Of a stretch of DNA of 64,000 nucleotides, positions 13,208-54,234 are shown in pieces (positions within the stretch are counted from its first letter, which is position 1; the number at the start of each line of letters is the position of its first letter). The DNA comes from Spirochaetia bacterium (GTDB lineage: Bacteria > Spirochaetota > Spirochaetia > SZUA-6 > Bin103). The notes below the pieces were generated by a model. The model worked only from the letters and a program-made list of their open reading frames with translations, did not search any database and was not told where the DNA came from. Made by a program: the position numbers and the translations under genes. The DNA lies in contig CBDBOV010000005.1 in NCBI GenBank assembly GCA_965208575.1, positions 1,184,001-1,248,000 of the forward strand, written 5' to 3'.

Positions 13208-13486
13208 ATGACCCCAGACGATACCCTGTTTCTGAAGAATTTCTTCCAGAAGGTAATCGAATTTCTGCCGATTGCCGATGATGATGCCAGGTGGCTGGCT
13301 GCGATTGCAAATAGCCATCAGGCCGCGCTGGACAGTGCCAACCAGCTTCCGGTCCTGGCGCGCTTTTTGGACACCCACTTGGCACTCTGCTATCGCAATG
13401 GAGATGAGTGGTTCGATATACATCCACTCATCGCCGACCAAGTGGATCGGCAGGTTGAGGAATCCCGTGCGCGGTCCAAGACTTGA
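13208..13486 (+). pseudogene. Internally deleted P-loop ATPase gene (N- and C-terminal remnants fused), partner of the downstream TPR gene
   Basis: C-terminal LARFLDTHLALCYRNGDEWFDIHPLI resembles the tail of the ATPases that precede such TPR genes. No Walker motifs remain. TGATG coupling to the next gene. Confidence 0.55.
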
Positions 13487-20740: not shown

Positions 20741-22309
20741 TCAGCGTCCGCCGCGGTGTACTTCCAGGCAGGTCATGTGCGACTTGGCAGCGCCGAGCGA
20801 GCGCCAGGTGAAGCTGCACTCCGGATAGGCGCGGCCGGCGACGAGCCGGAGCAGGCCGCCGTTGAACCAGTTGACCACCGAGCCGTCATACTTCGCCGGT
20901 CCGTGGTAGGACGCATACGGGGCTGCGCCGTCACGGTCGCGGATCATGATGTCGGTTATCTCCAGCACCCCGTGCGGGTGGAGCAGGCCGATCAGTCGCA
21001 GACACGCGCCGATGGCACGGTCCGACAGCGGGATGCGCCGGTCCGGTCCCGGTGCCGCCACCTCCGGCGGCAGCGCCCCCGCCGGTGCCTGCCAGGTTGC
21101 GACGCTGTCGGGATCGGCTACCTCCACCAGCCGCTCGCGCAGCCTGAGGCCGCTGCCGCGAAATGCGGGGTTGCCGAACAGGTCCTGCCAGAACAGGTAC
21201 CATCCGCGTTCGCCGTCGGTGGCGCCGTGCGCCGCGAACCTGTCCCGGCGGTGCTCCAGGAAGCGGCCGACGGCGCCGGTGGCAGTGCCTGCCATGCCGC
21301 GAAGATCGGTTGCCAGGCGACCGGGGTTCAACCCGTGCCGCGCGGCGAGCCACTCGAGCGCGGCTGCCGGCAGGTACAGGCAGGTGTGCAACTGGTAGTG
21401 ACGGCCGCCGATCTGCACCAGTTCTTCGCCCGGCAGGTTGTCGAGCAGGTTGGTCAGGTGCGCGCCGAGTATCCGCCCTCGATAAGCCTCCAGCGCGTGT
21501 CCCGGCCGCGTCAGGTCGAACGCGAGGTAGTGGACCGAGACCGAGCCGCGCCGCTGTCCGAGGCGCGTGCGGGCACGGCGCAGGGCGCCGGGAGAGCGGT
21601 CGGCGACGAGGTAGTCCACGGCCTCCAGCCGTGCGAGGTGGCGAATCATCGTCTCTGCATACCCGGTGTCCGCGGCGCCGACATCGAGGTAGGCGAGCGG
21701 CAGTGCCCGCGCCGCGCCGCCGCTGCCGCGTGCGCGGCGCACCCGGGCGCAGAATCGGCGGGCGTGTTCGGCGGTGCGGACCGGGTCGCTGTCCGGCGAG
21801 CCGCCGATCGAGTCATGCGCGTTCCGGCCGACGGCGGCCATGTAGGCGGGCAAGTGGTGCCAGAACGCGGCGTTGAAATCCCATATCGGGCTCTCTCCCG
21901 CGTTCCCGTAGCCGCCAATGTCGATGCCCGGCGCCTGCAACGGGCCGTCGAGTGCCTCGGCGACGTGGCATGCGAATTCCGCCGGCGATCCTGTCTGGCC
22001 CAAGTCGACCGTCAGTTCCCGCGCGCGGGTGCCGTCCGCGTGGTGGATCTCGCGCAGCGCAACCGCCCGGCGGAAGTGCTGCCGGTAGGAGATCCGGCTC
22101 CAGCACACCCGGTCCGGCACCGGGCGCATCGCCGCGCGCCGCTCGGCCAGCACACGCAGCCCGCGCGCCACCACGGGTGCCGATTCGCCGGCCGCGATGC
22201 CGGGCGCGAAGCGATGAACGATCCCGTCCGCGACCGGCGGGAGGAGGCCCGACCGCGGCACCGTCACCGCGGCATCCGGCGCAGGGGAGGGCACGCACGC
22301 GGCCGGCAC
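20741..22309 (-). CDS. Putative SAM-dependent methyltransferase-like protein (MidA/NDUFAF7-like traits), start uncertain
   Basis: YLDVGA.D.GYA, YLVADRS, HLTNLLDNLP, GPAKYDGSVVNW motifs. Confidence 0.55.
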   Translation of the reverse strand: MPAACVPSPAPDAAVTVPRSGLLPPVADGIVHRFAPGIAAGESAPVVARGLRVLAERRAAMRPVPDRVCWSRISYRQHFRRAVALREIHHADGTRARELTVDLGQTGSPAEFACHVAEALDGPLQAPGIDIGGYGNAGESPIWDFNAAFWHHLPAYMAAVGRNAHDSIGGSPDSDPVRTAEHARRFCARVRRARGSGGAARALPLAYLDVGAADTGYAETMIRHLARLEAVDYLVADRSPGALRRARTRLGQRRGSVSVHYLAFDLTRPGHALEAYRGRILGAHLTNLLDNLPGEELVQIGGRHYQLHTCLYLPAAALEWLAARHGLNPGRLATDLRGMAGTATGAVGRFLEHRRDRFAAHGATDGERGWYLFWQDLFGNPAFRGSGLRLRERLVEVADPDSVATWQAPAGALPPEVAAPGPDRRIPLSDRAIGACLRLIGLLHPHGVLEITDIMIRDRDGAAPYASYHGPAKYDGSVVNWFNGGLLRLVAGRAYPECSFTWRSLGAAKSHMTCLEVHRGGR

Positions 22310-27912: not shown

Positions 27913-29930
27913 CGTGTCACCTCCTCGGTCTTGGGCCGCCGAACCGGATCCTCCTGCTCGGAGAGCTGCGCGTAGAAGGTCTCGGCGTACAGGGCGTTGT
28001 TGTCGAGCAGCTCCCGGTGGGTGCCGAGCCCGGCGATGCGGCCCTGGTGGAGCAGCACCACGCGGTCGGCGGCGAGCACCGTGTTCATGCGGCTGGCGAT
28101 GACGAACGACAGGCGATCGCGCTTCAGCCGGTCGATGGCGGCGCGGATCCGCACCTCGGTCTCGTAGTCGACGTTGCTGGTGCTGTCGTCGAAGATCAGG
28201 ATGCGCGGTTCGATCAACAGCGCGCGCGCGATGGCGATGCGTTGTTTCTGGCCGCCCGAGAGTGTGACGCCGCGTTCGCCGACCTCGGAGTGATAGCCAT
28301 TCGGGAACGACTCGATGAAATCGTGCGCGGCCGCCGCCTGCGCCGCTGCGGCGATCTGTTCGTCGGTGGCGTCGGGGCGCCCGTAGGCGATGTTCTCGCG
28401 TATGGTTCCGCCGAACAGCGTGGTTTCCTCCAGCACGATGCCGATCTGCCGGCGCAAGGACTCCAGGGTGACGTCGCGAATGTCGACTCCATCGAAGGTG
28501 ATGCGGCCCTCGGTGACGTCGTAGAAGCGCGGTATCAGGTTGATGATGGTGCTCTTGCCCGAACCGGTGCCGCCGACGATGGCAATGGTTTCGGTGGCGC
28601 GGGTGGCGAACGTCACGTCCTGGAGGACCGCCGCGCCGAGGCCGAAGTAGCGGAAGCCGACGCCCTCGAAGCGCACGCCGCGCGTGAGCGGGGCCAGTTC
28701 CGCGGCGCCGGATACTTCCTTGACGTCGGATTCGGCATCCAGGATCTCGAAGATCCGTTCGGCGCTGGCGGAGGCCTGCGAGATCGACATCATGATCATG
28801 CCGAGCATGGTGATCGGGAACATGGCCACGATCAGGTAGCCCTGGAACGCGACCAGCTCGCCGATGGTGAGGCGTTGCGCCAGGACCTGGATGCCGCCGC
28901 CCCAGGTCACCACCAGGGTCCCGAAGTTGGACATGGCGAACACCAGCGGAATGGCGAGGGAGAAAACGGCCGCGGCGAGCATCGACTGGTCGTAGAGTTC
29001 CTGGTTGGAATGCTCGAACCGTCTCTGTTCGCGTGCGGCTCCGGTGTACGCCTTCACCACCCGCACACCGACCAGGTTCTCCTCCAGCCTGGTGTTGAGG
29101 GCGGCGATCTTTTCCTGGATCCCGCGGAATATCGGCCGGCCCTTGCGCGCCATGAACGAGAACAGGGCGAACACGGCCATCATCACCGGCACCACGTGCA
29201 GGGCCAGCCGCCAGTTGGTGACGAACAGCAGGTACAGGCTTCCGATCATCAGCACCGCGGTGGTGACGATCTGGATGACGCCGGTGCTGATGAAGGTGCG
29301 CACCATGTCGACGTCGCTGGTTGCGCGCGTCAGGAGCTGGCCGGTCTGGGAGCGGTCGTGATAGCTGAACGACAGGCTCTGTATGTGATCGTACAGCGCG
29401 TTGCGCAGGTCGTAGGCCACGCCCTGCGAAACCTTGGCGGCCAGTACTCCCTGCAGGTAGGTGAACAACGAGCGCAGCACGGTCACCGCAAATATCACCA
29501 CCGAGCCGATCACGATAGCCTGCAGCCGGTCGTCGAGGATGCCGCTGTCGACCACCAACTGGGTGATGCGCGGTACCGCGAGGTTGCCTGCCGAACTGGC
29601 CAGCAGACAAATCAGGCTGGCCAGGGTAGCCGCCTTGTAGTGGCGCATGAACATCAGGGTGCGCAGCAGCGCCCGCAGCGCCGGCCGGCGCACCAGGCGC
29701 CGGCCGCGCCGGCTCCCACTCCCGTTCGACCAGCCGCCGCCGGCGGCGCCGCCGGGCGCCATCCCGCCCGTGCCGACGCCTGCGCCCGTGCGTCCGGCTC
29801 CGTCCGCGCGCGCGGCTGCGTCCGCGCCCGGGACGGACCCGTTCGCGCGCGCCGGCGGTCCACCTCGGTTCGGTGCGCGGCCACGGCGCGCCCTGTTGCC
29901 GTCTGCGCGCGGCGAAGAGTGCTCAGACAC
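27909..29930 (-). CDS. Heterodimeric multidrug-type ABC exporter, subunit 1 (degenerate NBD)
   Basis: GGTGSGKST, LSGGQKQR; degenerate Walker B (FDDS) and switch (IASR), typical of TM287-type subunits. Start uncertain. Confidence 0.9.
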   Translation of the reverse strand: MSEHSSPRADGNRARRGRAPNRGGPPARANGSVPGADAAARADGAGRTGAGVGTGGMAPGGAAGGGWSNGSGSRRGRRLVRRPALRALLRTLMFMRHYKAATLASLICLLASSAGNLAVPRITQLVVDSGILDDRLQAIVIGSVVIFAVTVLRSLFTYLQGVLAAKVSQGVAYDLRNALYDHIQSLSFSYHDRSQTGQLLTRATSDVDMVRTFISTGVIQIVTTAVLMIGSLYLLFVTNWRLALHVVPVMMAVFALFSFMARKGRPIFRGIQEKIAALNTRLEENLVGVRVVKAYTGAAREQRRFEHSNQELYDQSMLAAAVFSLAIPLVFAMSNFGTLVVTWGGGIQVLAQRLTIGELVAFQGYLIVAMFPITMLGMIMMSISQASASAERIFEILDAESDVKEVSGAAELAPLTRGVRFEGVGFRYFGLGAAVLQDVTFATRATETIAIVGGTGSGKSTIINLIPRFYDVTEGRITFDGVDIRDVTLESLRRQIGIVLEETTLFGGTIRENIAYGRPDATDEQIAAAAQAAAAHDFIESFPNGYHSEVGERGVTLSGGQKQRIAIARALLIEPRILIFDDSTSNVDYETEVRIRAAIDRLKRDRLSFVIASRMNTVLAADRVVLLHQGRIAGLGTHRELLDNNALYAETFYAQLSEQEDPVRRPKTEEVTR

Positions 29931-30375
29931 GGTTGGGCTCCTCGCTATCCGAAAGTTTCTCAAGCAGCGTATTCAAATCGTTCAACTCCGCGGCGGTCAG
30001 CGCATCCATCACGCACCGGACGCGTCGCTCGTACTCCGGCCACAACTCACCGATCCGCCGCCGTCCCGCCGTGGTGGCGTGGACCAGCACCACGCGCCGG
30101 TCGCCGGGCGCGGGCCGCCGTTCCACCAGCCCCTCACGCTCCAGGCGGTCGACGACGCCGGACGCGTTGCCGGGATCGGTCCATGACCGTGCGGCGAGCT
30201 TGGTGAGCGGGATGCCATCGTCCGGAATGCGAATGAGGGTAAAGAATTGCGCCCCGGTCATGCCTGCTTTGTGGAACACCGTGCCGACCACCCGCTTGAT
30301 GCGTAACGACGTGCGCATCAGCCGCCGGAATGCGGCGACCGACGGATCACCGGAAGTGTCGAATCGATCATCCAT
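29923..30375 (-). CDS. MarR family transcriptional regulator
   Basis: wHTH pattern VVDRLEREGLVERR..PGDRRVVLV..T.AG; first gene of the ABC operon. Confidence 0.9.
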   Translation of the reverse strand: MDDRFDTSGDPSVAAFRRLMRTSLRIKRVVGTVFHKAGMTGAQFFTLIRIPDDGIPLTKLAARSWTDPGNASGVVDRLEREGLVERRPAPGDRRVVLVHATTAGRRRIGELWPEYERRVRCVMDALTAAELNDLNTLLEKLSDSEEPNRV

Positions 30376-30468: not shown

Positions 30469-32638
30469 CAGGGCGATCCCATGCTGAAGGGGCTGGTAAT
30501 CCTGTGATCGAGTCGTTAGGCTGTGGTCATGGAGCTTCAGGAGTTGCGCGAGGAGCCGCTGGCGGCGGCAACGCCGGCAGGTTTTGCGCTGGCCGAGGTG
30601 GTGGTGCGGTTGGTGCGACCGGACGAACGGGTCAAATGGGACGTGCTGATGGATCAGCATCACTACCTGGGGTTCAAGCGGTTTGCCGGGCGCGGGTTGC
30701 GCTATGTGGCGGAGTGGCGTGGCCGCTGGATAGCGCTGGCCGGCTGGCAGGCGGCAGCGCTCAAGTGTGCCGCGCGCGATCGCTGGATTGGATGGCGCGG
30801 CAAGAAGATGTTCAGGCGCCTGCACCTGATTGCGAACAACACCCGGTTCCTGGTGCTGGGCGAGCGCGGCGTATTTGCGAATCTCGGCTCCTGCATGATG
30901 AGCGCGATGCTGCGCCGGCTGAGCGACGACTGGCTCGGGCAGTATGGCCATCCATTGCTGGTGGTGGAGAGCTTCGTCGACCCGACACGGTTCACCGGCA
31001 CCATGTACGCGGCGGCGAACTGGAGCTACGTGGGCAACAGCAAGGGCTATGCGCGCTGCAACGGTCACTACACCGACCCGCACGGGCAGCCGAAGCGGCT
31101 GTACGTGCGCGCGTTGCGCGACGACGCTCGCGAGATCCTGCGCCAGCGCGCAGAGTTGGCCGCCTGCTGGCAGGCGCGGGTGCCGACCGCGGGCGGCGAC
31201 CAGGTTGACAAGCGCAGTCTGTACGAGGAATTGCAGCAGATCCCGGATCACCGCCGTGGGCAGGGCCGCAAGCATTCGCTGGCGACCGTGCTGGCGGTGT
31301 ACCTGCTGGCGATGTTGTCCAACATGCGTGGCCCGGTGGCGGCCGCCGAGTACGCGCAAGCGCTCGACCAGGAGGAACTGAAGCTGCTGGGGGCGTGGCG
31401 CAACCGCCGCACGGGACGCTACGAGCCGCCCCCCAAATCGACCATTCACCGGGTGGTGATGGCAACCGATGCCGAGGCGCTGGAGGCGATGCATCAGCGC
31501 TATGCGACGGCGCGCGTGCCGGCACCCGAAGCGCAGCAGCACCGGCAGGCACTGGCGGCCGACGGCAAGCGGATACGGGGCGCCAATCGCAACGGCACGA
31601 TGCGCTACGAGACTGCGACGCTGGTCGAGCACCGCACCGGCGTACCGGTCGCGAGCCTCAACTTTCACGACCAGAACGGCGAACTGGCAGCGGTTGGGGC
31701 ACTGCTGGAGGTAGTTCCGATCAGTGGTGCGGTGATCACCCTGGATGCGCTGCACACGACACGCGACACCACCGTCAGTATCGTCGAGCAGCATGCCGCC
31801 GACTATCTCCTGACCGTCAAGGGGAACTGTTCGGAGACCTTCGAGGCACTCGCTACCATGCCGTGGGAGGACGCTGACGGGCGCTTCTCCGAGGACCCGC
31901 AGAAGGGCCATGGACGTATCGACCGGCGCCATATTGAAGTCCTCACCCCGCTCAACAAGACGCTCAACTTTGCCCATGTCGCGCAGGTGTTCCGGGTACG
32001 GCGCGAGCGCACCGACCTGAAAAGCGGCGAACATAGCATCGAGTACGCCTACGGCATCACCTCACTGGCCGCCACCTGCGCGACGCCGCAGCAACTGCTG
32101 GCCTGGAATCGCGGCCACTGGGCAATCGAGTCGAAGAATCATCATCGCCGCGACAACACGCTGTGCGAAGACGCCTGCACAGCTCGCAGCGGCTTCTCGC
32201 CGGCCAACCGTGCGACCTGCAACAACATCGTGCTGGCGCTGATCCTGCACCACCGCCGGTGGGACAACGCCGCGCAGGCCCTGCGCTACTTCACCTTACG
32301 CCGGAGCGAAGCCTTCAAGGCGCTGCTGGCGCGCGGCTGAAGCGACCCCAGCGCGCCTTTACCCCAGCACTCCGCTCAGCGATCTCGGCTGCTCCCAAAC
32401 TTCCAGATACCGCACCGTGCCACTCCCTGAAGCCGGCAGGTTCCGACACGCGTAATCTGATCACCTCTGCCGCTACTGGCAACAGGTCCTGCCGCCAACG
32501 CTGCCTCCGCACGTCCCGAAGTGACGACTGCATCCGTCACTTCCGTCTCCCCAGCCTCAGTGACCGACCAAGCGACCTCTCTTGGGCAATGTTCGCATCG
32601 GGCCCCATCAAGACTCAGCAGAGCATGGGATGGCCGTG
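30469..32638 (+). mobile_element. Complete ISAs1-family insertion sequence (2170 bp)
   Basis: IRL CAGGGCGATCCCATGCT (30469-30485) and IRR (32622-32638) match 15/17. Flanked by 8-bp direct repeat CAGGCGCA at 30461-30468 and 32639-32646. Confidence 0.93.
30529..32340 (+). CDS. ISAs1-family DDE transposase with N-terminal DUF4338 domain
   Basis: HHYLG..RDRWIGW..IANNTRFL..ESFVDP (DUF4338); PDHRRGQGRKH (assoc domain); ADGK, TLDALHT, VKGN, GHGRID, RGHWAIES..RD...ED (ISAs1 DDE). Confidence 0.92.
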   Translation: MELQELREEPLAAATPAGFALAEVVVRLVRPDERVKWDVLMDQHHYLGFKRFAGRGLRYVAEWRGRWIALAGWQAAALKCAARDRWIGWRGKKMFRRLHLIANNTRFLVLGERGVFANLGSCMMSAMLRRLSDDWLGQYGHPLLVVESFVDPTRFTGTMYAAANWSYVGNSKGYARCNGHYTDPHGQPKRLYVRALRDDAREILRQRAELAACWQARVPTAGGDQVDKRSLYEELQQIPDHRRGQGRKHSLATVLAVYLLAMLSNMRGPVAAAEYAQALDQEELKLLGAWRNRRTGRYEPPPKSTIHRVVMATDAEALEAMHQRYATARVPAPEAQQHRQALAADGKRIRGANRNGTMRYETATLVEHRTGVPVASLNFHDQNGELAAVGALLEVVPISGAVITLDALHTTRDTTVSIVEQHAADYLLTVKGNCSETFEALATMPWEDADGRFSEDPQKGHGRIDRRHIEVLTPLNKTLNFAHVAQVFRVRRERTDLKSGEHSIEYAYGITSLAATCATPQQLLAWNRGHWAIESKNHHRRDNTLCEDACTARSGFSPANRATCNNIVLALILHHRRWDNAAQALRYFTLRRSEAFKALLARG

Positions 32639-32695: not shown

Positions 32696-33385
32696 ATGAA
32701 GGTTTTCGTCCACGGCCCCGAGTTGCGCGGCAGCTACCGGCTGCCGGACCTGGTGGTCGACACCCTGGCGGAGCGCAACCGTTCCGCCAAGCGCACGTAC
32801 TACACCGTCGACTTCGATCGCGAACAGCGCCGCCGCGCCGACTGTTTCCTCATCTCCGCCGACACCGCGCTCGACTGGATGCTGGAGGACACCGAGATTC
32901 TGGAGCGCAACCTGTACACCGATCCGGCGCGAACCGGAGCGGTGCAGCGCGCCCTCGGTGTGCTGGAGCGGGAGGTGCCGCTCAACGGCGAGCCGTTCGA
33001 CCCCGATGACGCCCGCTTCCTGCGCGGTCTGAACGTATCCACCATGAAGCCGGGAATCATCGTCGACGCCACACCCGACGACGCGGCCCTGCAGACCCAC
33101 ATCCGCGCCATGCATCGAGCGCTCGGCCGGATTTTCTTCTATACCGCGAGCAAGTCGGAGGCGCGTGTCTGGGAGGTGGAGGCGGGTGTCGGCATCGCCG
33201 CCGCGGCGGGGCGGATTCACGGCGACCTGGAGCGCGGATTCATCCGGGCCGACGTGTTCAACGAGGCGCAACTCAGCCAGTTTCGCACGCCGCAGGAGGC
33301 CAGGGCCAAGGGCCTGCTGAAGGTCGTCGACCGTTCCTACCGCATTGCGTACGGCGACGTGATCGAAGTCAAGTTCAACGTGTAG
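32696..33385 (+). CDS. Short YchF-like protein (DUF933/TGS C-terminus) lacking recognisable G-motifs
   Basis: FFYTA...RVWEV..AAGRIHGDLERGFIRADV...KGLLKVVDRSY....GDVIEVKFNV; no GxxNxGKS. Confidence 0.8.
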   Translation: MKVFVHGPELRGSYRLPDLVVDTLAERNRSAKRTYYTVDFDREQRRRADCFLISADTALDWMLEDTEILERNLYTDPARTGAVQRALGVLEREVPLNGEPFDPDDARFLRGLNVSTMKPGIIVDATPDDAALQTHIRAMHRALGRIFFYTASKSEARVWEVEAGVGIAAAAGRIHGDLERGFIRADVFNEAQLSQFRTPQEARAKGLLKVVDRSYRIAYGDVIEVKFNV

Positions 33386-34568
33386 ACCGCTGGCCGGCCG
33401 ATCGCAACCGTTTGACGAACCACTCCCACTTGAGGACCGACTCGGAGGGCACGACCGCTTCCAGGTAGCGCCTGCCGACGCGAAAGGTGAGCCGGCGGCG
33501 CATGTCCACGGTGATCGACTGCACGCGCTCGATCGGCGTGCGCCACGGGTCGGCGCCCTCGATCAGCAACTCGCCTCTGGTGATGCGCATGGCGCCGGCC
33601 GCCACCTGGCGCGGCTGCCCGGAGGTGATGTCGAGCAGGGTCATCGGCTCGCTCGGCGCCGGCAGGCGCTCCTCGCTGTCGAGGCCGGCCGCGTGGAAGC
33701 GGCGGATGCGGTCCACGACTTCCGGCAGCGTGTGTGTTGGTGCGCCGCCGCGCCCGTTCAAGCGGCCATCGGCATCGACGCGCCAGGCCGCGCGACAGCG
33801 CCGGCACTCGAGCCGGTTGCCTGCCTCCCGCAAGCCGTCGATCAGGAAACAGTCCGGGCACGCCCACGCCACGTTGGCGATGCCGCGCGCGAAACCGCTG
33901 CCGGCTACCGGGTAGCGCGGCGCGCCGAGGGCGTCGACGGCGATGCGCCGCTCGATGTAGCCGCGGATGTCCGCCAGCGGCGTGCCGCGTGCAAAGTGCC
34001 GCGGCTCGTCCAGCTCCACGTGCACCGCGCCGCGGCGGAAGCGCGGCGACCAGCGCGGCGACTGCCGAAAGCCGTTGTAGATGCGCATCGTCACCAGCGG
34101 CACGTCGAGCAGGCGCACCAGTTTCTCGATTCCCGGCGCCAGCGGCAGCGGGCGCCCGTCCCAGGTTCGCTCTCCTTCCGGGAACAGACCGACGTAGGCG
34201 CCGGCGTCCGCCCAACGCTTGAGACTGATAATGGCGCGCGCGTCGGCGGTGTACTTCATCTTCGGGACGGCGCCGAAGTGGACGAAAAAGCGGCCGAGCG
34301 GCCCTTCGCGGAAGTTGGAAGCGGTGGCCAGCATGGTTACGTGGTCACCCGCCGCGCGCACCATGATCGGCGGATCGAAGAAGCCGGAGTGATTGGCCAG
34401 AAACAGGACCGGCTGGCGCCTCGGCATCCGCTCGCGCCCCGTCACCGTCAACTGCACCCAGCGCGACATCACCGCCACGAACGGCGGGCGCCACAGCCGC
34501 ACACGGCGGCGTACGAGGTCGAGGTTGCGGGCGCTCGGCGGCAGCGCGGGCAACTGGCGGGCGGGCAT
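33375..34568 (-). CDS. Lysophospholipid acyltransferase (PlsC family) with C-terminal CxxC..CxxC extension
   Basis: NHSGFFD and FPEGERT motifs; CPDC...CRRC. Confidence 0.88.
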   Translation of the reverse strand: MPARQLPALPPSARNLDLVRRRVRLWRPPFVAVMSRWVQLTVTGRERMPRRQPVLFLANHSGFFDPPIMVRAAGDHVTMLATASNFREGPLGRFFVHFGAVPKMKYTADARAIISLKRWADAGAYVGLFPEGERTWDGRPLPLAPGIEKLVRLLDVPLVTMRIYNGFRQSPRWSPRFRRGAVHVELDEPRHFARGTPLADIRGYIERRIAVDALGAPRYPVAGSGFARGIANVAWACPDCFLIDGLREAGNRLECRRCRAAWRVDADGRLNGRGGAPTHTLPEVVDRIRRFHAAGLDSEERLPAPSEPMTLLDITSGQPRQVAAGAMRITRGELLIEGADPWRTPIERVQSITVDMRRRLTFRVGRRYLEAVVPSESVLKWEWFVKRLRSAGQRSTR

Positions 34569-34857
34569 CAGTGGGCGGCGGCCGCGACGCGAACGTCCGC
34601 GCGCGCGAGCGGCCGCGCCGGTAAGGTGACCGGCGCGGGAGCGCAGGTCGGGAGCGAGTTTGCCATGACGGTGCGCCGTTCATCGTTGCATGCCCGCGGG
34701 CCGCGCGACAATCGTGGATCATTGCGACCGGTACGGCCATCGTCGTCCAAGCCGCCGGCCGCGCAGCCGCGTGCGCCGGCGCCGAGCTGCGAAACCTGCG
34801 AACCCGACGCCGTTGTCAGTGCCGGGCGGGTGGGCTACCCTCTCTTCCGTCCCGCCG

Positions 34858-35616
34858 GTGACTGACCATCTCATCAAAGCGCACCTCTACCTGCACGCCG
34901 TCCTGCCGCAACTGGAGGAGGTGGTGCGCGTGGACGCGGCCGCGCAGGCGGTGGTGGCCGGTTGGCGCAGCAGCATAGCGCTGCAGGTGGCCGGTGGACC
35001 GGGCGTGCGGCTGGAGGTGGCCGACGGCCGCCTGAGCGCGGTGCGCCGCGGGCGCGGCCTGCCGTCGCTGGGGCTGCTGCTCGCCGGTCCGGCAGCCGCG
35101 GTACGGATGTTCGAGGCGGGCGGCGCCACGCCGCTGCCGTGGATCGGCGGCTGGCGGCTGCGCCTGATCCGCGGCCTGCGCGCGCTCAGTGGGCGGCTGC
35201 AGTACTACCTGAAGGCGGACCGGGCGCGGCTGGAGGGCGATGGCGCATTCGAAGCCGCCGTATCGATCCGGCTGGCCGTGCTGGCGTACGCCATCGCCGT
35301 GCTCGGCGAGTGCTGGGAGGAAGGACGCAGCATCGCGGCCGGCACAGCGGCGGACGGCACGGTCGCCATTGGCGTGGCCGGCGCCGCTCCCGTGCACCTG
35401 CGCAGCGCGGGTGGGCGGCTTACCGCATCGCGCACGGCGTCCCGGCCGGCCAACGTGGCGGTGGAATTCGCCCATGCGCCGGCGGCCTACGGAATCCTGT
35501 CGGGGAGCGCGGACCTGTGGACCGCGATCGGCATCGGTGACGTGCGCTTGCGGGGCCACCTGCTGCTGCTCGATCCGGTTCTGCAACTGATGGCGCGGGT
35601 GGGGAGCTTCCTGTGA
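34858..35616 (+). CDS. Hypothetical protein with SCP2 (sterol carrier)-like fold, probably tandem
   Basis: C-terminal ILSGSADLWTAIGIGDVRLRG.L is an SCP2-type pattern; GTG start inferred; overlaps the aminotransferase start (GTGA). Confidence 0.6.
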   Translation: MTDHLIKAHLYLHAVLPQLEEVVRVDAAAQAVVAGWRSSIALQVAGGPGVRLEVADGRLSAVRRGRGLPSLGLLLAGPAAAVRMFEAGGATPLPWIGGWRLRLIRGLRALSGRLQYYLKADRARLEGDGAFEAAVSIRLAVLAYAIAVLGECWEEGRSIAAGTAADGTVAIGVAGAAPVHLRSAGGRLTASRTASRPANVAVEFAHAPAAYGILSGSADLWTAIGIGDVRLRGHLLLLDPVLQLMARVGSFL

Positions 35617-36863
35617 GCAAGCGGTTCCGCGATGGCGCAACGCAGTTCACGCGCGGCGATGCGCTGTTCCGGCGCGCGGCGCAGGTGATTCCGCGCGGCA
35701 TCTACGGCACGCGCGGCCCGTGGCTGGTGGTGCCGGGGTCATACCCGCTGTTCGCGGCGCGCGGCCGCGGCGCCCGCTACTGGGACGTCGACGGCAACGA
35801 ATACATCGACTACCTGTGCGGCTTCGGGGCCAGCATTCTCGGATACGCCGACCCCGCCGTCGACGCCGCCGCGCACGCCGCCGAGGTGGCCGGGTTCGGC
35901 TTCAATCACCCGACCGCCGCGATGGTTGAGCTGGCCGAGTTCCTGACCGCCCGCATCGCCGGCATGGATTGGGCGCTGTTCGGCAAGAACGGCTCCGACG
36001 CGACCAGCTTCGCCATCCAGGTGGCGCGCGCGCACACCGGGCGCCGCACGGTGCTGAAGGCCGCCGGCGCGTACCACGGGTCGCATCCCTGGGCGACTCC
36101 CGGCGCGGCCGGCCTTACCGCGGAAGAGCGCGCGCACGTGCACGATTTCACCTGGAACGATCACGCCGACCTGGAGACGCTGGTCACGCACCACCGGGAC
36201 GATCTCGCCGCGATCCTCGTCACTCCCTACCATCATCCGCTGTTCGACGACTCCGAGTTTTCGCGCCGGCAGTTTCTGCAGCGGTTGTGCGAGCTCGCCC
36301 ATCGGCATGGCGCACTGGTGATCAGCGACGACGTACGCGTGGGGTTTCGCGCCTGCCTGGACGGCTCGCACCGGGTATTCGAATTCGACCCCGATCTGAG
36401 CTGCTACTCGAAAGCGATCGCCAATGGCCACCCAATCGCCGCCTGCCTCGGCCGCCGGCCGCAGTTCGCGGCCGCCGGGGCGGTGTTCGCCACCGGCACC
36501 TTCTGGATGCAGCAGGGGCCGATGGCCGCGGCAATGGCCTGCATACGGCGGCTCGAACAGATCGACGGCGTGGCGCTGATGCGGCAGCGCGGCACCGAGC
36601 TGATCGAGGGGCTGCGCCAGGTGGCGACGCGGCACGGCGAACGGCTGCACGTGTCCGGCCTGCCGAGCATGCCCAAGGTGCGCTTTGCCGGCGAGACCGA
36701 TTTTCTGCGCTTCCAGCGTTTCTGCGCCGCCGCCACGCGCCGCGGCGCGTACTTCCATCCCTACCACAACTGGTTCCTGAGCACTGCCCACAGCCGCGAC
36801 GATATCGCCCGCACCGTCGACATCGCCGACGCCGCGCTGGCGGAGGTGGTCGCCGCGAGCTGA
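35613..36863 (+). CDS. Class III PLP aminotransferase, FumI/GSA-aminomutase-like
   Basis: WDVDGNEYIDY, KNGSDATS, GAYHG..PW.TP, DDVRVGFR, PDLSCYSK.IANG, HPYHNWFLS.AH. Confidence 0.88.
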   Translation: MSKRFRDGATQFTRGDALFRRAAQVIPRGIYGTRGPWLVVPGSYPLFAARGRGARYWDVDGNEYIDYLCGFGASILGYADPAVDAAAHAAEVAGFGFNHPTAAMVELAEFLTARIAGMDWALFGKNGSDATSFAIQVARAHTGRRTVLKAAGAYHGSHPWATPGAAGLTAEERAHVHDFTWNDHADLETLVTHHRDDLAAILVTPYHHPLFDDSEFSRRQFLQRLCELAHRHGALVISDDVRVGFRACLDGSHRVFEFDPDLSCYSKAIANGHPIAACLGRRPQFAAAGAVFATGTFWMQQGPMAAAMACIRRLEQIDGVALMRQRGTELIEGLRQVATRHGERLHVSGLPSMPKVRFAGETDFLRFQRFCAAATRRGAYFHPYHNWFLSTAHSRDDIARTVDIADAALAEVVAAS

Positions 36864-36868
36864 CCCTA

Positions 36869-37858
36869 CTATCCGTCCCCGGCGCGGCGACCGCGCTCCA
36901 GGTGCCAGTTCCAGCAGGCGCGCAGGCCCTCCGCGAGCGGCGCCACCGCGTAGCCGAGCTCGCGGACCGCCCTGGTGGAGCGGTAACGGCGGTTGCGGGC
37001 AAGAATACGGCAGGTGGGCATGGAAACCCGCGGCTCGCGCCCGCTCAGGCAACTGGCGCCGGTGTGCAGCAGCGCCATCGCGTGCAGCATCCACGGTGCC
37101 AACCGGCGCCGCGGCGCGGCAGCGCCCACCGCGGCGGCAATGGCTGCGAACAGCTCCCGGAACGACAGCGGATGGCCGCCGAGCACGTAGCGCCGGCCGG
37201 GGCGCCCGTGATCGAGGGCCGCCAGGTGCCCGGCTACCACGTCGTCGAGCACCGCGGCCGTGGTGCCGCCGGGCGGATAGCCTGGTACGCCGGCGGCAAC
37301 CTCGCGCAGCAGCCGCAAGCCATTGCCGTTGCGGTCTCCGGCGCCGAACACCAGTGCGGGGTTGACTACCACCGCCGCCACGCGCGGATCGCCAAGCACC
37401 ATTCGTTCCGCCTCGTACTTGGTGTCGAAGTAGGCGATGCCGCGGCCGTGCCAGTTGTACGCGGTGTTCTCGTCGCCCAGCTCCTCGCCGGGCACCGAAC
37501 CGAGGGTGGCGATGGAGCTGGTGTGCAGCAAGGTGGCAACGCCGGCGCCGGCGCAGGCATCCAGCAGGCGTGCGGTGCCGTGCACGTTGACCTCGCGCAT
37601 TTCCGCGGCCCGGGCCGGCCAGTAGGACGCGCGCCCGGCGAGGTGGCACACCGCCTCCACGCCGCGCAGTGCTGCCGGCAGCGTGGCGGCGTCGCCGAGG
37701 TCGCCGGCCGCCAGATCCAGGTCGGCGCCGAGGATGGCGCGCGCCCGTTCCGGGTCGCGGACCAGGCAGCGCACGCGGTCGCCGCGCCGCAGCAGGGCGT
37801 GCGCCAGCGCGGCTCCGATCTGGCCGGTGGCGCCGGTTACCAGTACCGAGCGGGCCAT
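36869..37858 (-). CDS. NAD-dependent epimerase/dehydratase (HpnA/dihydroflavonol reductase-like)
   Basis: LVTGATGQIG, NVHGT, HTSS, YFDTK, NPALVFG motifs. Confidence 0.9.
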   Translation of the reverse strand: MARSVLVTGATGQIGAALAHALLRRGDRVRCLVRDPERARAILGADLDLAAGDLGDAATLPAALRGVEAVCHLAGRASYWPARAAEMREVNVHGTARLLDACAGAGVATLLHTSSIATLGSVPGEELGDENTAYNWHGRGIAYFDTKYEAERMVLGDPRVAAVVVNPALVFGAGDRNGNGLRLLREVAAGVPGYPPGGTTAAVLDDVVAGHLAALDHGRPGRRYVLGGHPLSFRELFAAIAAAVGAAAPRRRLAPWMLHAMALLHTGASCLSGREPRVSMPTCRILARNRRYRSTRAVRELGYAVAPLAEGLRACWNWHLERGRRAGDG

Positions 37859-37921
37859 CGGTCGGCGCCTCCGGTGGGCAGGCGGTACACCGGCACGTCG
37901 CCGTCGTCGTGTCCGCCGCGC

Positions 37922-38983
37922 TCAGCGGCGGCGGTGGGAGTGCAGCGGACGGTGCGCGGCATGCGGAGCAATCGCCCGGCTGTCGGGGGTGGTCTGGTGG
38001 ATCGGCTCGCCGGGGCGGGGGCGCGCGCGCCGCGCTACCGTATGCAGCGCGGCCGCCGCCTGCCGTACCGCGAGCGGCAGCACCAGCGGGTACGCGTGCG
38101 GCGCCCGGCGTCGTGCCCTCGCGCGGTGGCGTGCGCGGCCGCCCGGCGACTGCGTGCGCAACGCCTTGGGGGCCGGCGCCGGCCGCCACCCGGGCGGGCC
38201 GAACAGGTACATCAGCCGCTGCCGCAACGGGCCGCGTCGCATCACGTCGCGCACCATGGAACTCACCTCGTGAAAGGTCAGCGTCACCGGGTTGTGCGAG
38301 CCGACGTTCCTGGTCAGGCCGTAGACGACCGGTTCCACCTCCGGCTCGTAGGTGCCGAACAGGTGATCCCAGAAAATGAAAATGGCTCCGTAGTTGCGGT
38401 CCAGGTAATGCGGATTGGAGCCGTGATGCACGCGATGGTTGGAGGGAGTATTGAAAATACGGTCCAGGAAGCCGAGCTTGCCGACCAGTTCGGTGTGCAC
38501 CCAGAGCTGGTAGAGCGTGGTGATCGAATTGATCGCCAGGATCGCCTCGGGGCGAAATCCCAGCAACGCCAGCGGCAGCATGAACACGAAGTGCAGCGGC
38601 AGTATGAACAGATTCAGGCGCACCGCAACCGTGAAGTTGTACTTCTGCGACGAATGATGGGTGACGTGGAATGCCCACATGAAGCGGCAGCGATGACCGA
38701 GGCGATGGAACACGTAGTAGATGAAATCGTTGACCACGAACAGCAGCGCCCAGGAATACCAGGACAGGCCCATGTCCACCACCGCGACGCGGTGCAGAAA
38801 CGCGAACATGAGCAGGAACACTCCCTTGATGGCAGCCGCCATCAGCAGGTCGCCGAACGCCAGCGCGAAGTTCGCGGCGGTGTCCCTGATCTCGTAGGTG
38901 CGCAGGTTGTGCACCCAACTGACCGCGGTCTCGACCGCGATCAGCGCCAGGAAGCCGATGGCAATCAACGCCTCCAGGCTCAC
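37922..38983 (-). CDS. Sterol desaturase/fatty acid hydroxylase family, alkylglycerol monooxygenase-like
   Basis: His boxes HRLGH, HVTHHSS, HTE, TPSNHRVHH, NYG..WDHLFGTY; N-terminal TM helices. Confidence 0.88.
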   Translation of the reverse strand: MSLEALIAIGFLALIAVETAVSWVHNLRTYEIRDTAANFALAFGDLLMAAAIKGVFLLMFAFLHRVAVVDMGLSWYSWALLFVVNDFIYYVFHRLGHRCRFMWAFHVTHHSSQKYNFTVAVRLNLFILPLHFVFMLPLALLGFRPEAILAINSITTLYQLWVHTELVGKLGFLDRIFNTPSNHRVHHGSNPHYLDRNYGAIFIFWDHLFGTYEPEVEPVVYGLTRNVGSHNPVTLTFHEVSSMVRDVMRRGPLRQRLMYLFGPPGWRPAPAPKALRTQSPGGRARHRARARRRAPHAYPLVLPLAVRQAAAALHTVARRARPRPGEPIHQTTPDSRAIAPHAAHRPLHSHRRR

Positions 38984-50934: not shown

Positions 50935-53900
50935 GTGCTGCTGACCGCCATGCCGTACCTGCTCGGCGCCCAGTCCGAGCCGCCGGCCGCCGGCGCGCCG
51001 CCGGCCGGCGGGCAGGAGCGCCTGCTGTCGCCGTCCGGCCAGGCGCTGGTACGCGCGACGCTGTCCGAGCGCATCGCGGGGGCCGGCTACTTCGAGTTGC
51101 TCGACGAGTTGCGCGTGCTCGGCCTGGACGACCGCGGCACGCGGGCGGAGCTGGCCGCGCGCCTGCGCGGCCACTACGGCCTGCCCGCTCCGCGGGCCGC
51201 CGCCGGCGAGCCGTCCGAGGTGGTGCAGGTGCGGCAGGCCGGGTACGCGGAATATGTCACCTCGCCGGACACCGGGGCCGACTCGGTCGCCCTGCGCGGC
51301 GCCGTCGAGGTGGTGGTGCGCAAGACCGATCCGGACACCGTGCACGTGATCCGCGCCGACGAGGTGATTCACGACCGCGCGGCGCGCCTGCTCACGGCAC
51401 GCGGCGACGTCTCCTACGAGGTAGTGCAGGAGGATGAAGAGGCGCAGTCGGTGAGCGCCGCGTCCATGTCGTTCGACTTGCACAGTTCCAAGGCGGTATT
51501 CGTGGACGCGACCACCCGGCAACGGCGCCGCGGCGAGTCCGGACCGCTCACCTTCACGTTCAACGCCGCCGCCATCACCCGGCTGACCGACGGCACCATT
51601 GTCCTCGACGACGTCAGCTTCTCGTCGAGCCCCGATCCGATTCGGCCCAACTACGAGGTGCGCGCGCAGCGCATGTGGCTGCTCGCGCCCGGCGAGTGGG
51701 CGATGCAGTCCGCCACCCTGCGCGTCGGCCGCGTGCCGCTGTTCTACCTGCCGTACTTCGTGTGGCCGGGCGATGAACTGGTGTTCCATCCCGCGCTCGG
51801 CGTGCGCGACCGCGAGGGGCTGTTTCTCAACACCACGCTGTATCTGATCGGCCGCCGCAAGCGCGACGCGGATCCGTTTTCGGTCCTCAGCCTGACCGAT
51901 CCGGGCAACTACCGCGAGGAGCTGCGCGGCATGTTCCTGCGCAAGATTCGCGGCCAGGATCCACGCAGCGAGGAGCACTACCTGAAGCTGATGCTGGACC
52001 TGTATTCCCGCCTGGGCGTGTTTACCGGCGTCGCCGCCACGCTGCCGGTGGCCGGCGTGGGAGAGGCGAGTTTCCAGCTCGGCGCGGCGCGCTCGCGCAG
52101 CATATTCTATCGTCCGGCGCAAGGCGGATACACGGTGCTCGACGAGAGCGGGCGCTCACATTGGAACGATGCCACGCTGTTCGGCACGTCGTTCCCGCTG
52201 CGCTACGGGATCGAGCTTGCCGGCAACGCGCGCATTCGAGGCAGCTCGCTACGCGCGCGCATGGAAGTGTTCTCGGATCCCGACTTCCTGCGCGACTTCG
52301 GCAACCGCGAGGAGCGGATCGACTGGCCGGGGTTGCTCGGTTTCGAGGGCGGCGACGACGGCGCTCCGGGCCGACGGTCCAGCCTGACCTGGGAGGTGGT
52401 GGGCAGCGCCGACCTGAACGAACTGCTGGCCGGCGGCGCGCGCCCGCCGCTGCTGCAACGGGCGAGGATCACCAACGCCGGCGTGCGCTGGCTGTGGCAG
52501 AGCCGCGCCGATCCGGCGGTGCCGCTCAACGATCCGGATCCGACCCGCTGGTTCTTCTACCCCGCGACCCTGCGCGTGCCGGCGGCCGCGCAAGTGAGCG
52601 GGACGTTCTGGCAGTGGCCGGCGCCGCCGGCGTCCGAGCCGTCCGGGGAGACGCCCGCGCCGGCAGCGGTGGCGGGCCGCGGCCTGCGCCGCGCCGACGC
52701 GCCGCCGGCGCGGGCGGACGCAGGCGAGCCGGACGCGGACGATTCGCCGCCGCGCGCCGCGGCCGGCGCGGGCCGGGCGCCGCCGGCGCGCCACGACCAG
52801 TATCGCGCGCCGGCGGCGCCGCCGGTCGCGGCCGTGGCGCCGCCCGCGACGGCTCGCATCGGCTATCAGCTGACTCCCGGCGTCACCGTGGAGGCGACCT
52901 ACGGCAGCGATGCCTGGCGGGCCGCGGACGATGTCGACTTCGCGCTCGAATCGATTGTCGTGCGCGGTGAACACACCAGCCGCCTCGAGCAGAGCCTCGA
53001 TCTGTACGGCGGGCTGTTCAGCTTCGACCACGGGTTGCGGCACAGTCTGACCGTGCTGCTGCCGCACCGGCGCAGCGCCCTCGCCGACGCCGCCGCCTGG
53101 CAAGAGCTGGTGGAGCAGAGTCGCCAGCGCTCGCGTGCCAACCTGCACCTCACCAACCGGTTCACGTGGCGCCCGGTGCGCCATATCGCCGCCTGGCAGG
53201 ACTCCAGCATCACTTACGACATCGACCTGCGGCTTCTCAACGTGGTCTATCACGCGCCGAGCAGGGCGTACCGTACCCGGCCCGGCGGGTGGGACGCCGA
53301 TGGCGTCTCCCGCCATCGGCTGCAGACGGCTGCCGTCTGGAAGGTCGGTGATCATCCGCAACGGCTCACGCTGGCCGGCGACCTGCCGCCGCGCCCGCTC
53401 CTGCTCAGCGCACAACTCGATCTGCAAGCGGGTGTGGCTACCGCCGGCGCCGTGCTGCGGGCACGCTGCCAGGACGCCCACCGGACGCTCGGCGAGTGCC
53501 CCAAGCTGGTCCCCGATCCCCTGTCGGTGAGCGTCGGGGTATCCCCGTTCCCGCCGCTGTCCATCGCCGAGCGGGTAGCCATAGACCTGGTCCGGTCGCA
53601 GTTCGAACGGTCGGAGACGACCGTCAGTCTCGCCGGCTTGAGCGCATCGCTCATCGCCGTGCGTCCGCAGCCGGACGAACCGCTGCAGGCGCGCCAGTTG
53701 CGCCTCGGTTATTCCGAGTCGTTCGGTCCTCACTACGAGTGGCGCAACCGCATCCGGGTCGGTTTTTCCCCATCCACGAGCTGGACAGTCGATTTCGTGG
53801 AGCCACGGCGCAGCCGCTTCACGTTCACCACCGCTCTCACCGTGGCGGTTCACGAGTTCCTCGACCTCTCGTTCCGGACCTCGTCGAGCAACGACCGCAC

Positions 53901-54234
53901 CTATTGTTACGTGGCGGCGTGGGCGGACGATGCCTGCACCACGCGCGATCCGGTCGAGGACTTGTGGTGGTCGCTGGCGTTCTGGGACGAGGACAAGCGC
54001 CGCCAATCCAGCTTCAAGGTCGACCGCATCAGCCTGAGCGCCGTCCATCACCTGGAGGACTGGGATCTGAGCCTCGAATACTCCGCCCGTCCGGTGGCGA
54101 GGGAGGGAGGCTTTCGGGAGTTCTCTTCCGAATTCTCCATCTTCGTGCAGTGGATTCCGGTGCCCGAGATCCGCGGCCGCGTGGGCGGCGACGACGATGC
54201 CATTTTTCTCGGCGAATCCGCGGACGAGTCTTGA
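50935..54234 (+). CDS. lptD: LptD-like outer-membrane LPS/lipid assembly protein (spirochaete type)
   Basis: OstA-like N-terminus (IRADEVIHD..A.GDV.Y), RVGRVPLFYLPYF..P, HPALG.RDREG.F.NTT, long beta-strand C-terminus with HHLEDW.L and I.VQW.P.PEI. Start uncertain. Confidence 0.7.
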   Translation: MLLTAMPYLLGAQSEPPAAGAPPAGGQERLLSPSGQALVRATLSERIAGAGYFELLDELRVLGLDDRGTRAELAARLRGHYGLPAPRAAAGEPSEVVQVRQAGYAEYVTSPDTGADSVALRGAVEVVVRKTDPDTVHVIRADEVIHDRAARLLTARGDVSYEVVQEDEEAQSVSAASMSFDLHSSKAVFVDATTRQRRRGESGPLTFTFNAAAITRLTDGTIVLDDVSFSSSPDPIRPNYEVRAQRMWLLAPGEWAMQSATLRVGRVPLFYLPYFVWPGDELVFHPALGVRDREGLFLNTTLYLIGRRKRDADPFSVLSLTDPGNYREELRGMFLRKIRGQDPRSEEHYLKLMLDLYSRLGVFTGVAATLPVAGVGEASFQLGAARSRSIFYRPAQGGYTVLDESGRSHWNDATLFGTSFPLRYGIELAGNARIRGSSLRARMEVFSDPDFLRDFGNREERIDWPGLLGFEGGDDGAPGRRSSLTWEVVGSADLNELLAGGARPPLLQRARITNAGVRWLWQSRADPAVPLNDPDPTRWFFYPATLRVPAAAQVSGTFWQWPAPPASEPSGETPAPAAVAGRGLRRADAPPARADAGEPDADDSPPRAAAGAGRAPPARHDQYRAPAAPPVAAVAPPATARIGYQLTPGVTVEATYGSDAWRAADDVDFALESIVVRGEHTSRLEQSLDLYGGLFSFDHGLRHSLTVLLPHRRSALADAAAWQELVEQSRQRSRANLHLTNRFTWRPVRHIAAWQDSSITYDIDLRLLNVVYHAPSRAYRTRPGGWDADGVSRHRLQTAAVWKVGDHPQRLTLAGDLPPRPLLLSAQLDLQAGVATAGAVLRARCQDAHRTLGECPKLVPDPLSVSVGVSPFPPLSIAERVAIDLVRSQFERSETTVSLAGLSASLIAVRPQPDEPLQARQLRLGYSESFGPHYEWRNRIRVGFSPSTSWTVDFVEPRRSRFTFTTALTVAVHEFLDLSFRTSSSNDRTYCYVAAWADDACTTRDPVEDLWWSLAFWDEDKRRQSSFKVDRISLSAVHHLEDWDLSLEYSARPVAREGGFREFSSEFSIFVQWIPVPEIRGRVGGDDDAIFLGESADES

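Follow-up and report, generated by a model that had tools for sequence, protein, structure and literature searches.

A FumI-like aminotransferase coupled to a tandem SCP2-fold protein in a sponge-type spirochaete, and its possible action on sphingoid-like bases

FumI of Sphingopyxis sp. MTA144 (PDB 6hbs/6hbv) is a class III, pyridoxal 5'-phosphate (PLP)-dependent aminotransferase which, as reported in PMC3136697, removes the amino group of the long-chain 2-amino-3-ol hydrolysed fumonisin B1 (HFB1) and prefers pyruvate as acceptor. Here, we describe a gene for a FumI-like aminotransferase that is paired with a gene for a predicted tandem SCP2-fold protein and accompanied by a gene for an extended short-chain dehydrogenase/reductase (SDR); these three genes are referred to as the cassette. 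They lie in a 64,000-nucleotide stretch of the genome of a Spirochaetia bacterium (GenBank assembly GCA_965208575.1, contig CBDBOV010000005.1, positions 1,184,001 to 1,248,000 of the forward strand; G000:C5:1184001-1248000 in our own numbering), which has a G+C content of ~70% and is, as a whole, called the window.

In comparison with FumI, the window's aminotransferase has the same class III fold, the catalytic lysine and seven shared motifs; however, the two enzymes are only ~45% identical, and the gene is here coupled to a tandem-SCP2 gene and an SDR gene. The FumD-type carboxylesterase of the fumonisin-catabolic cluster has no counterpart among the cluster genes or the scanned window genes. 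HemL (glutamate-1-semialdehyde 2,1-aminomutase) belongs to the same class III subgroup, but the window's enzyme falls into a separate clade and scores under the HemL cut-offs. With the SCP2-fold carriers, such as UbiJ-SCP2 (6h6o/6h6p), the alkylsulfatase C-terminal domains (2cfu, 4pdx) and sterol carrier protein 2, the partner protein has the predicted fold in common, but it fuses two SCP2 domains in 252 aa and has no Pfam match.

To our knowledge, the known routes by which sphingoid bases are made all involve serine palmitoyltransferase, and those by which they are broken down a kinase and a lyase. In bacterial ceramide synthesis, with Spt, bCerS and CerR, a PLP enzyme installs the amine, and a reductase of the NAD-epimerase family, an acyltransferase and lipid hydroxylases take part as well. 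The locus in the window presents a like mix of enzymes; however, its PLP enzyme is a class III transaminase and not of the AONS type, and its PlsC-type acyltransferase lies outside the unit which is gained and lost among relatives. While all component families are known, the combination of SCP2 protein and aminotransferase and its variant with SDR and hydroxylase appear to be undescribed: in a literature search, no SCP2-coupled FumI-like aminotransferase system, with or without transketolase, was found to have been described, and the search yielded, on the deamination of sphingoid bases by a bacterial aminotransferase, only the FumI papers. For transketolase-transaminase cascades leading to amino-alcohols, it found only laboratory ones, as in PMC5813273.

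The aminotransferase and its tandem-SCP2 partner

Five open reading frames (ORFs) occupy the region between 33375 and 38983, exactly where the initial annotation, a model's reading of the DNA letters, had placed them. Their G+C content at third codon positions (GC3) is 0.85-0.90 in all five frames, which is the codon-position pattern of real genes, and the five-gene set is real. Its features are the following:

33375..34568, minus strand: PlsC/LPLAT-type acyltransferase, 397 aa (PF01553, 56 bits)
34569..34857, no strand: 289-bp intergenic region separating the divergent acyltransferase and SCP2 genes, an insertion hotspot in relatives
34858..35616, plus strand: predicted tandem SCP2-fold protein, 252 aa, GTG start (AlphaFold2 fold, homologues)
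35613..36863, plus strand: FumI-like class III (PLP) aminotransferase, 416 aa (PF00202 Aminotran_3, 118 bits)
36869..37858, minus strand: extended SDR, 329 aa (PF01370 Epimerase, 96 bits; PF01073 3Beta_HSD, 73 bits)
37922..38983, minus strand: membrane di-iron protein of the FA_hydroxylase family, 353 aa, with an Arg/Pro-rich tail (PF04116, 98.7 bits)

The locus is covered at 90-97% identity by contigs of three sponge-metagenome studies, one contig bridging the acyltransferase, SCP2 and aminotransferase genes, and homologues carry names of the kind "MAG Spirochaetaceae/Spirochaetia bacterium"; therefore, the organism is regarded as a sponge-type spirochaete.

Among all PDB chains, the aminotransferase matches best to 6hbs, the aminopentol aminotransferase FumI, with 339.6 bits (E 2.7e-100), its residues 13-412 aligning nearly gap-free with residues 5-403 over ~400 residues at ~45% identity, as compared to at most 179.9 bits for any PDB HemL. 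Its top NCBIfam matches are HemL-type models reaching up to 231 bits, all of them under the respective cut-offs (TIGR00713, 196.6 versus 527.3; NF000818, 231.4 versus 398), and a better HemL candidate, with 488 bits, is encoded elsewhere in the genome. In a tree of 22 sequences, from which no rows had been dropped, the SCP2-linked aminotransferases constitute one clade with 100/100 support, apart from three HemL-like paralogues of the same genome, to which the long-branch warnings of the tree pertain; as FumI and the reference HemLs are not among the 22 sequences, placement between these two rests on the bit scores. Because all HemL scores are below the cut-offs, FumI scores almost twice as high as the best HemL, a better HemL candidate is present in the genome, and the tree separates the groups, the enzyme is classified from its sequence as FumI-like and not as HemL. 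This agrees with the initial annotation, whose FumI motifs are all found in the aminotransferase; KNGSDATS (residue 125), GAYHG (152), TPYHHPLFDD (204), DDVRVGFR (239), TGTFW (294), HPYHNWFLSTAH (382) and SKAIANG with the catalytic Lys267, seven motifs in all, are common to both proteins in the alignment.

The 252-aa partner, the N-terminus of which (MTDHLIK) agrees with that of its homologues, has no match to any Pfam model, including PF02036, or to any NCBIfam model; distant relatives with 22-33% identity carry PF02036. Its AlphaFold2 model, calculated from an alignment of 21 relatives (predicted local distance difference test, pLDDT, 89; predicted template modelling score, pTM, 0.88), displays two successive helix-sheet-helix units, for which Foldseek, at probability 1.00 and E 5e-5 to 1e-2, retrieves sterol carrier proteins, UbiJ-SCP2 and the C-terminal domains of alkylsulfatases; the template modelling (TM) score to single SCP2 domains is ~0.6. 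According to the model, the protein adopts a tandem SCP2 domain fold, which bears out the SCP2-like assignment given at the outset, and it may serve to carry a hydrophobic substrate or to present it to the aminotransferase. A word-indexed search recovered just 47 close relatives of the SCP2 protein, while a profile search of 1.84 billion representatives gave 591 clusters of the family at E <= 1e-3 and 353 at <= 1e-10, nearly all of their members being 250-265 aa in length. Where named, these members belong to Desulfatibacillum, Draconibacterium, Bacteroidales, Myxococcota, Desulfobacterales and Spirochaetes, the taxa of the 591 clusters being known from few named members. By these profile matches, the tandem-SCP2 family is large and uncharacterised; a tblastn comparison of a type-1 SCP2 protein with plasmids gave no match.

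The two genes are also tightly joined in the DNA. The SCP2 stop codon TGA (35614-35616) overlaps the aminotransferase start codon GTG (35613-35615) in the context cctGTGAgc, and the motif GGGGAG is located 6 nt upstream of this GTG; with this GTGA overlap and upstream motif, the genes are predicted to be translationally coupled, as the initial annotation had held. A prediction of the complex of the two proteins, likewise suggested there, reached a score of 0.56 (runs 0.64, 0.49 and 0.56), the best of three controls scoring 0.00; of 157 solved complexes, 116 pass the mark applied, as do 2 of 215 mismatched pairs, with scores <=0.60 that pass it coming from 18 of the 157 solved complexes and from both passing mismatches. 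Contacts agree by at least 89% between the runs and the partner pLDDT is at least 86, and the prediction lends weak support to a physical complex.

Conservation of the pair and composition of the unit

For the delineation of the unit, 41 related genomes were searched and 18 loci were fetched. The aminotransferase has orthologues, with at least 57% identity, in 9 of 10 same-genus and 9 of 13 sister-genus genomes, and the nearest match in the other 17 genomes of the order, found in one genome, is 46% identical. The SCP2 and aminotransferase genes are adjacent in all 16 orthologous family loci that reach both genes, and all five genes stand together in 5 of 9 same-genus loci, so that their co-location is not confined to the window; two further loci lie on contigs that are too short. 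In G005, the order is SCP2, aminotransferase, SDR and hydroxylase, and the acyltransferase gene is found ~130 kb away, still beside the gene of YchF type. The most divergent same-genus genome (G002, 81% complete) contains acyltransferase, SCP2 and aminotransferase genes and no SDR or hydroxylase gene. In the sister genus, all seven loci share one arrangement, consisting of the acyltransferase gene, an oppositely oriented classical SDR gene and, again in the orientation of the first, the extended SDR, SCP2 and aminotransferase genes; the hydroxylase is present in none of them.

The cassette is absent from 4 of 13 sister-genus genomes and apparently frameshifted in 2 of 13. G015 is missing exactly the extended SDR, SCP2 and aminotransferase genes, while the flanking acyltransferase and classical SDR genes and the downstream gene are still in place; in G011, only the acyltransferase and the downstream gene are kept, and the classical SDR gene is gone together with these three. 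A search with the window's SDR has the cassette copy as its sole match in G022 and G013, and no match in G011. Because G015 and G011 lack the cassette while its flanks remain, the unit which is gained and lost is composed of the extended SDR, the tandem-SCP2 protein and the aminotransferase. The five genes are not one unit. What stands of the five-gene pathway in the initial annotation is that the genes are all adjacent and real; what does not stand is their unity, as the acyltransferase is outside the gain/loss unit and the hydroxylase is restricted to the genus.

Several relatives contain interrupted genes. The aminotransferase is in two frames in G019 and G023, which may be an assembly error, an insert of 1.7 kb with lower GC content interrupts the extended SDR of G021 (L028, 5322-8045), and the SCP2 gene of G005 (L018, 9496-10279) is in two pieces; these are signs of decay or of assembly error. 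The proteins encoded downstream of the aminotransferase in G002 (519 aa) and in L087/L088 (473 aa) are mutually unrelated and without a Pfam match.

The pair itself reaches far beyond the family. A profile of the SCP2 family matches 28 of 301 Spirochaetota genomes, and each of the 18 best loci from the phylum's other families has, directly after the SCP2 gene, an aminotransferase gene whose product is 39-47% identical to that of the window; adjacent SCP2 and aminotransferase genes also occur in two genomes of a second, small-genome phylum. The adjacency of the two genes, to which the initial annotation had drawn attention, is, hence, conserved at each of these levels, and the pair constitutes a widespread uncharacterised module. 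An aminotransferase from the kind of sister operon described below scores 338 bits against FumI, and that of the window 340.

In 4 of 6 fully annotated loci and in G353 (loci among L081-L085 and L097), the pair is part of an operon with the order SCP2, aminotransferase, N- and C-terminal halves of a split transketolase, and a second SCP2 paralogue; the remaining two annotated loci have no transketolase. Adjacent to these transketolase operons are a divergent TetR gene (twice) and an AMP-binding/acyl-CoA-ligase-type gene or an aldehyde dehydrogenase gene, and, in G293 and G303, the split transketolase is additional to a canonical full-length one. All five copies of the operon transketolase have Ala in place of an Arg, and Ala-Ala or Gln-Ala in place of a Glu-Asp, of the solved split and human transketolases; in the canonical enzymes, these residues presumably bind the sugar phosphate and the acceptor hydroxyl. 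The C subunits share an acidic tail ending in WEDEV or WEDEI. The replacements are suggestive of an enzyme remodelled at its substrate residues. Compared with this operon, the locus in the window has in common a type-1 SCP2 protein (25-31% identity) directly before an aminotransferase of the same clade (39-47%), but the family locus is without the transketolase and the second SCP2 protein, and has the SDR, with the hydroxylase in the genus, instead. The window's genome has a single match to the SCP2-family profile, and its only split transketolases have DeoR, an FGGY kinase and an ABC transporter as neighbours, which are contexts of sugar type.

The extended SDR has the motifs GATGQIG at residue 9 (GxxGxxG) and YFDTK at 143, an invariant Ser-Tyr-Lys triad and an invariant Arg34 after strand beta-2. 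A basic Arg at this position of an SDR indicates, as a rule of thumb, a preference for NADPH. Its matches to the curated families HpnA (TIGR03466, 219.7, cut-off 367.65), SdmB (146.8) and OleD (107.7) are all under the cut-offs, and the SDR weakly resembles fatty acyl/aldehyde reductase families (NAD_binding_4, 50.9 bits; Thioester-redct, 55.7 bits). By these matches, it is probably an NADP(H)-type ketoreductase from the neighbourhood of HpnA, 3-beta-HSD, SdmB and OleD. An assignment to the hopanoid enzyme HpnA itself was considered and rejected, given the score below the cut-off and the lack of a squalene-hopene cyclase domain in the genome, which is 95% complete.

On the same strand, the hydroxylase gene is located upstream of the SDR gene, the two being 63 bp apart here and overlapping by 14 nt in G005, and the hydroxylase gene adjoins the SDR gene in all seven same-genus loci which reach that far; in the five sister-genus genomes searched, it was not found. 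Judged by this distribution of homologues, the hydroxylase is a genus-specific addition to the SDR operon. The protein has several hydrophobic stretches and the His boxes HRLGH (93), HVTHH (106) and HRVHH (183). Its best curated match is OlsE (NF052566), with 75.5 bits against a cut-off of 475, and its nearest relatives, at 44-51% identity, bear generic bacterial names of the "sterol desaturase family" or C-5 sterol desaturase kind. As an observation on its own, the catalytic domain is followed by a C-terminal tail of ~90 residues rich in Arg, Pro and Ala (window 37922-38190), and the length of the protein is 276-440 aa in close relatives and ~280-300 aa in homologues outside the lineage.

The acyltransferase displays the motifs HSGFFD at residue 60 (HX4D) and FPEG at 129, both invariant in 11 orthologues, and a zinc ribbon with CPDC (237) and CRRC (255). 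In agreement with the PlsC-like assignment in the initial annotation, Foldseek pairs its AlphaFold2 model (pLDDT 76) with PlsC (5kym, E 1.6e-7) and, at ~1e-3, with PH domains, corresponding to a C-terminal PH-like domain; the score against TIGR00530 (1-acylglycerol-3-phosphate acyltransferase), 38.5, is below the cut-off of 102.95. Between the acyltransferase and SCP2 genes, four same-genus genomes (L013, L015, L016 and L017) carry foreign inserts of 2.2-3.9 kb, with a GC content 6-11 points under that of the rest of the locus. On this comparative evidence, the acyltransferase is best described as a stable neighbour of the cassette, whose membership in the pathway is possible but unsupported and, in our view, doubtful.

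Possible functions of the cassette

Considering that an SCP2-fold protein is tightly coupled to the aminotransferase and that the pair is conserved far beyond this genome, it is reasonable to suppose a hydrophobic amino or keto substrate. The cassette is a lineage-specific version of a two-gene module of SCP2 protein and FumI-type aminotransferase, joined to an SDR in the family and to a hydroxylase in the genus. Our preferred interpretation, which we hold tentatively and at somewhat less than an even chance, is that the SCP2 protein holds a long-chain 2-amino-3-ol, i.e., a sphingoid-like base, whose deamination gives a ketone that is then reduced. The SCP2 protein would take the hydrophobic amino-alcohol from the membrane or the surroundings and present it to the aminotransferase, which, by analogy to FumI, might transfer the amino group to a keto acid such as pyruvate, resulting in an alpha-hydroxy-ketone; the SDR would reduce this ketone to an alcohol, and the hydroxylase could place a hydroxyl group or a double bond on the chain. 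The net effect would be a deamination of sphingoid-type bases, which are abundant in the sponge host, for the purpose of detoxification or assimilation. In other bacteria, the divergent split transketolase could cleave the same alpha-hydroxy-ketone. We infer the substrate, the co-substrate, the direction and the binding of the SCP2 protein to the aminotransferase. We favour the deaminating direction because catabolism is the role of the one characterised relative, the cassette can be dispensed with and the SDR looks reductive, and also because genes for TetR and aldehyde dehydrogenase and of acyl-CoA-ligase type are found with the sister operons.

Several points weigh against this interpretation. 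The identity of the substrate is based on ~45% identity to one characterised enzyme, and the aminotransferase clade is not uniformly lipid-directed, because a 41% identical paralogue in the same genome has gamma-glutamyltranspeptidase, FMN reductase, amidohydrolases and an ABC transporter permease as neighbours, which is a non-lipid context. An SCP2 fold is no proof of lipid binding, transamination is reversible and does not fix the direction, the cofactor argument for the SDR would follow from a rule of thumb, and the complex prediction gives weak support. G002 has the SCP2 and aminotransferase pair without the SDR, and no transporter, ceramidase, beta-oxidation gene or regulator is found in the cassette or directly beside it. 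As regards the transketolase, two sugar-context split enzymes of the window's genome are also without the Glu-Asp, and the split transketolase nearest to the sister-operon enzyme (6yak/6yaj) is an ordinary one.

FumI-like paralogues of ~40% identity were seen in non-lipid contexts at G000:C5:110800-111972 (L029) and at G001:C1:4710916-4735175; G001 has three such aminotransferase copies inside 25 kb.

The same set of enzymes could also serve biosynthesis, with the SDR oxidising a hydroxy-lipid, or another enzyme supplying the hydroxy-ketone, the aminotransferase aminating it on the SCP2 protein, the PlsC-type enzyme acylating the product and the hydroxylase decorating it, to yield a ceramide-like amino-lipid without serine palmitoyltransferase. 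Oxidation, transamination and acylation in sequence are established chemistry, and bacterial ceramide synthesis likewise employs a reductase of the NAD-epimerase family together with an acyltransferase. Enzymes of the PlsC and FA_hydroxylase types, with OlsE as the best curated match of the latter, usually build or decorate membrane lipids, the acyltransferase adjoins the cassette in both genera of the family though the outer flanks differ, and catabolic gene, transporter and hydrolase are all absent nearby. In addition, the combination of transketolase and transaminase has been proven in the laboratory as a way to 2-amino-1,3-diols, as reported in PMC5813273. However, the acyltransferase remains without the cassette in G011 and G015, is unlinked in G005 and is parted from the SCP2 gene by the foreign inserts in four genomes; the cassette is dispensable, since, of 13 sister-genus genomes, 4 lack it and 2 have it in an apparently frameshifted form; by the above rule, the basic residue that follows strand beta-2 suggests that the SDR is reductive; and the sole characterised relative is catabolic. 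Furthermore, the genome has two AONS-family genes, and a canonical Spt is possible because of them. Biosynthesis is, therefore, considered doubtful, if a serious alternative. Its most complete version, in which the cassette, the acyltransferase and the hydroxylase together would transaminate a hydroxy-ketone or hydroxy-lipid on the SCP2 protein, acylate and hydroxylate it to ceramide-like N-acyl amino-alcohols without serine palmitoyltransferase, while, in the sister operons, a fatty aldehyde would be converted to the hydroxy-ketone by the remodelled transketolase, is unlikely.

A modification of host sterols, with the SDR oxidising the 3-hydroxyl group, the aminotransferase making or removing a 3-amino group on the SCP2-carried sterol and the hydroxylase modifying ring or side chain, appears very unlikely. 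It would accommodate the SCP2 fold, the SDR matches to PF01073 3Beta_HSD (73 bits) and to the sterol demethylase protein SdmB (146.8 bits), and the sterol desaturase or C-5 sterol desaturase names among the hydroxylase relatives; since a search of the genome (95% complete) for squalene, oxidosqualene and squalene-hopene cyclase domains gave 0 matches, the sterol would have to be that of the host sponge. These names, however, are family labels and all curated scores are far under the cut-offs, the FumI substrate is a linear amino-alcohol, the same SCP2 and aminotransferase pair is elsewhere combined with a transketolase, an enzyme for which there is no obvious sterol substrate, and the sister genus keeps the cassette without the hydroxylase.

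The scheme of the initial annotation, in which an AGMO-like enzyme would cleave alkylglycerol ether lipids, reductase and aminotransferase would process the aldehyde or a sphingoid base, and the acyltransferase would re-acylate, must be rated as distinctly improbable. In its favour are the co-location of all five genes in 5 of 9 same-genus loci, the weak likeness of the SDR to fatty acyl/aldehyde reductases (NAD_binding_4, 50.9 bits; Thioester-redct, 55.7 bits) and the PF04116 domain of the hydroxylase, with His boxes as in a family to which we take AGMO (TMEM195) to belong. Against it, neither the curated matches, led by OlsE with 75.5 bits, nor the named relatives provide a specific link to AGMO, the hydroxylase is genus-specific, and the acyltransferase is outside the gain/loss unit. 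Re-acylation and ether-lipid processing, as envisaged there, are unsupported, as the acyltransferase persists without the cassette and nothing ties the hydroxylase to alkylglycerol cleavage. Finally, an ordinary HemL or amino-acid aminotransferase standing among unrelated genes by chance, as the HemL-type top matches of up to 231 bits in NCBIfam might suggest, is hardly credible in view of HemL scores that are all under the cut-offs, a FumI score almost twice the best HemL score, the better HemL candidate in the genome, the 100/100 split in the tree and the strict adjacency to SCP2 genes across families and phyla.

If deamination of sphingoid-like bases, as in the preferred interpretation, is true, the carrier-coupled transaminase module would be a different sphingoid-base route, present in several bacterial phyla with interchangeable downstream enzymes (a reductase here, a transketolase elsewhere), and would provide a new handle on how bacteria deal with sphingolipid-like amines of their hosts. 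In sponge symbionts, it could explain the tolerance or use of bioactive amino-alcohols of the host, and the enzymes are candidates for the detoxification of fumonisin-type compounds and for biocatalytic amino-alcohol synthesis. If, on the other hand, the module is biosynthetic in conjunction with the transketolase, it would do in nature what the transketolase-transaminase cascade does in the laboratory. To judge from the title of PMC2933618, FumI by itself has poor solubility, and the tandem-SCP2 partner may bear on this property.

Genomic setting

The genes around the five-gene set are housekeeping genes, encoding a YchF C-terminal protein, PdxT, PdxS and YggS, with an ISAs1-type transposase and a MarR regulator also nearby. 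The transposase (window 30523-32340, plus strand) matches the ISAs1-family model NF033564 with 148 bits and has an N-terminal DruA-like domain (PF14236, 74 bits). Its neighbours are the MarR gene (29923-30375) on one side and the YchF-type gene on the other, and, because these two are only ~110-135 bp apart in the relatives L013 and L014, it is regarded as a recent insertion. The YchF-type ORF (window 32696-33385, plus strand; 229 aa) has a match only to the YchF C-terminal domain, its residues 130-229 aligning to 269-368 of TIGR00092; the short form is kept across the genus, and the corresponding ORF of G002, with 364 aa, has its Pfam match still only in the C-terminal/TGS part.

Two large ORFs of the window, one of 1099 aa (50935-54234, plus strand) and one of 522 aa (20741-22309, minus strand), have GC3 values of 0.88 and 0.87, respectively, and no Pfam match. 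At the beginning of the window, a giant protein of 2705 aa with 15 Calx-beta repeats is encoded (53-8170, plus strand), and on the strand opposite to its gene, ORFs of ~111 aa recur each 735 bp. This gene is followed by genes for ankyrin-repeat and TPR proteins (12065-13195 and 13483-15768, both on the plus strand); Calx-beta, ankyrin and TPR proteins are features typical of host association.

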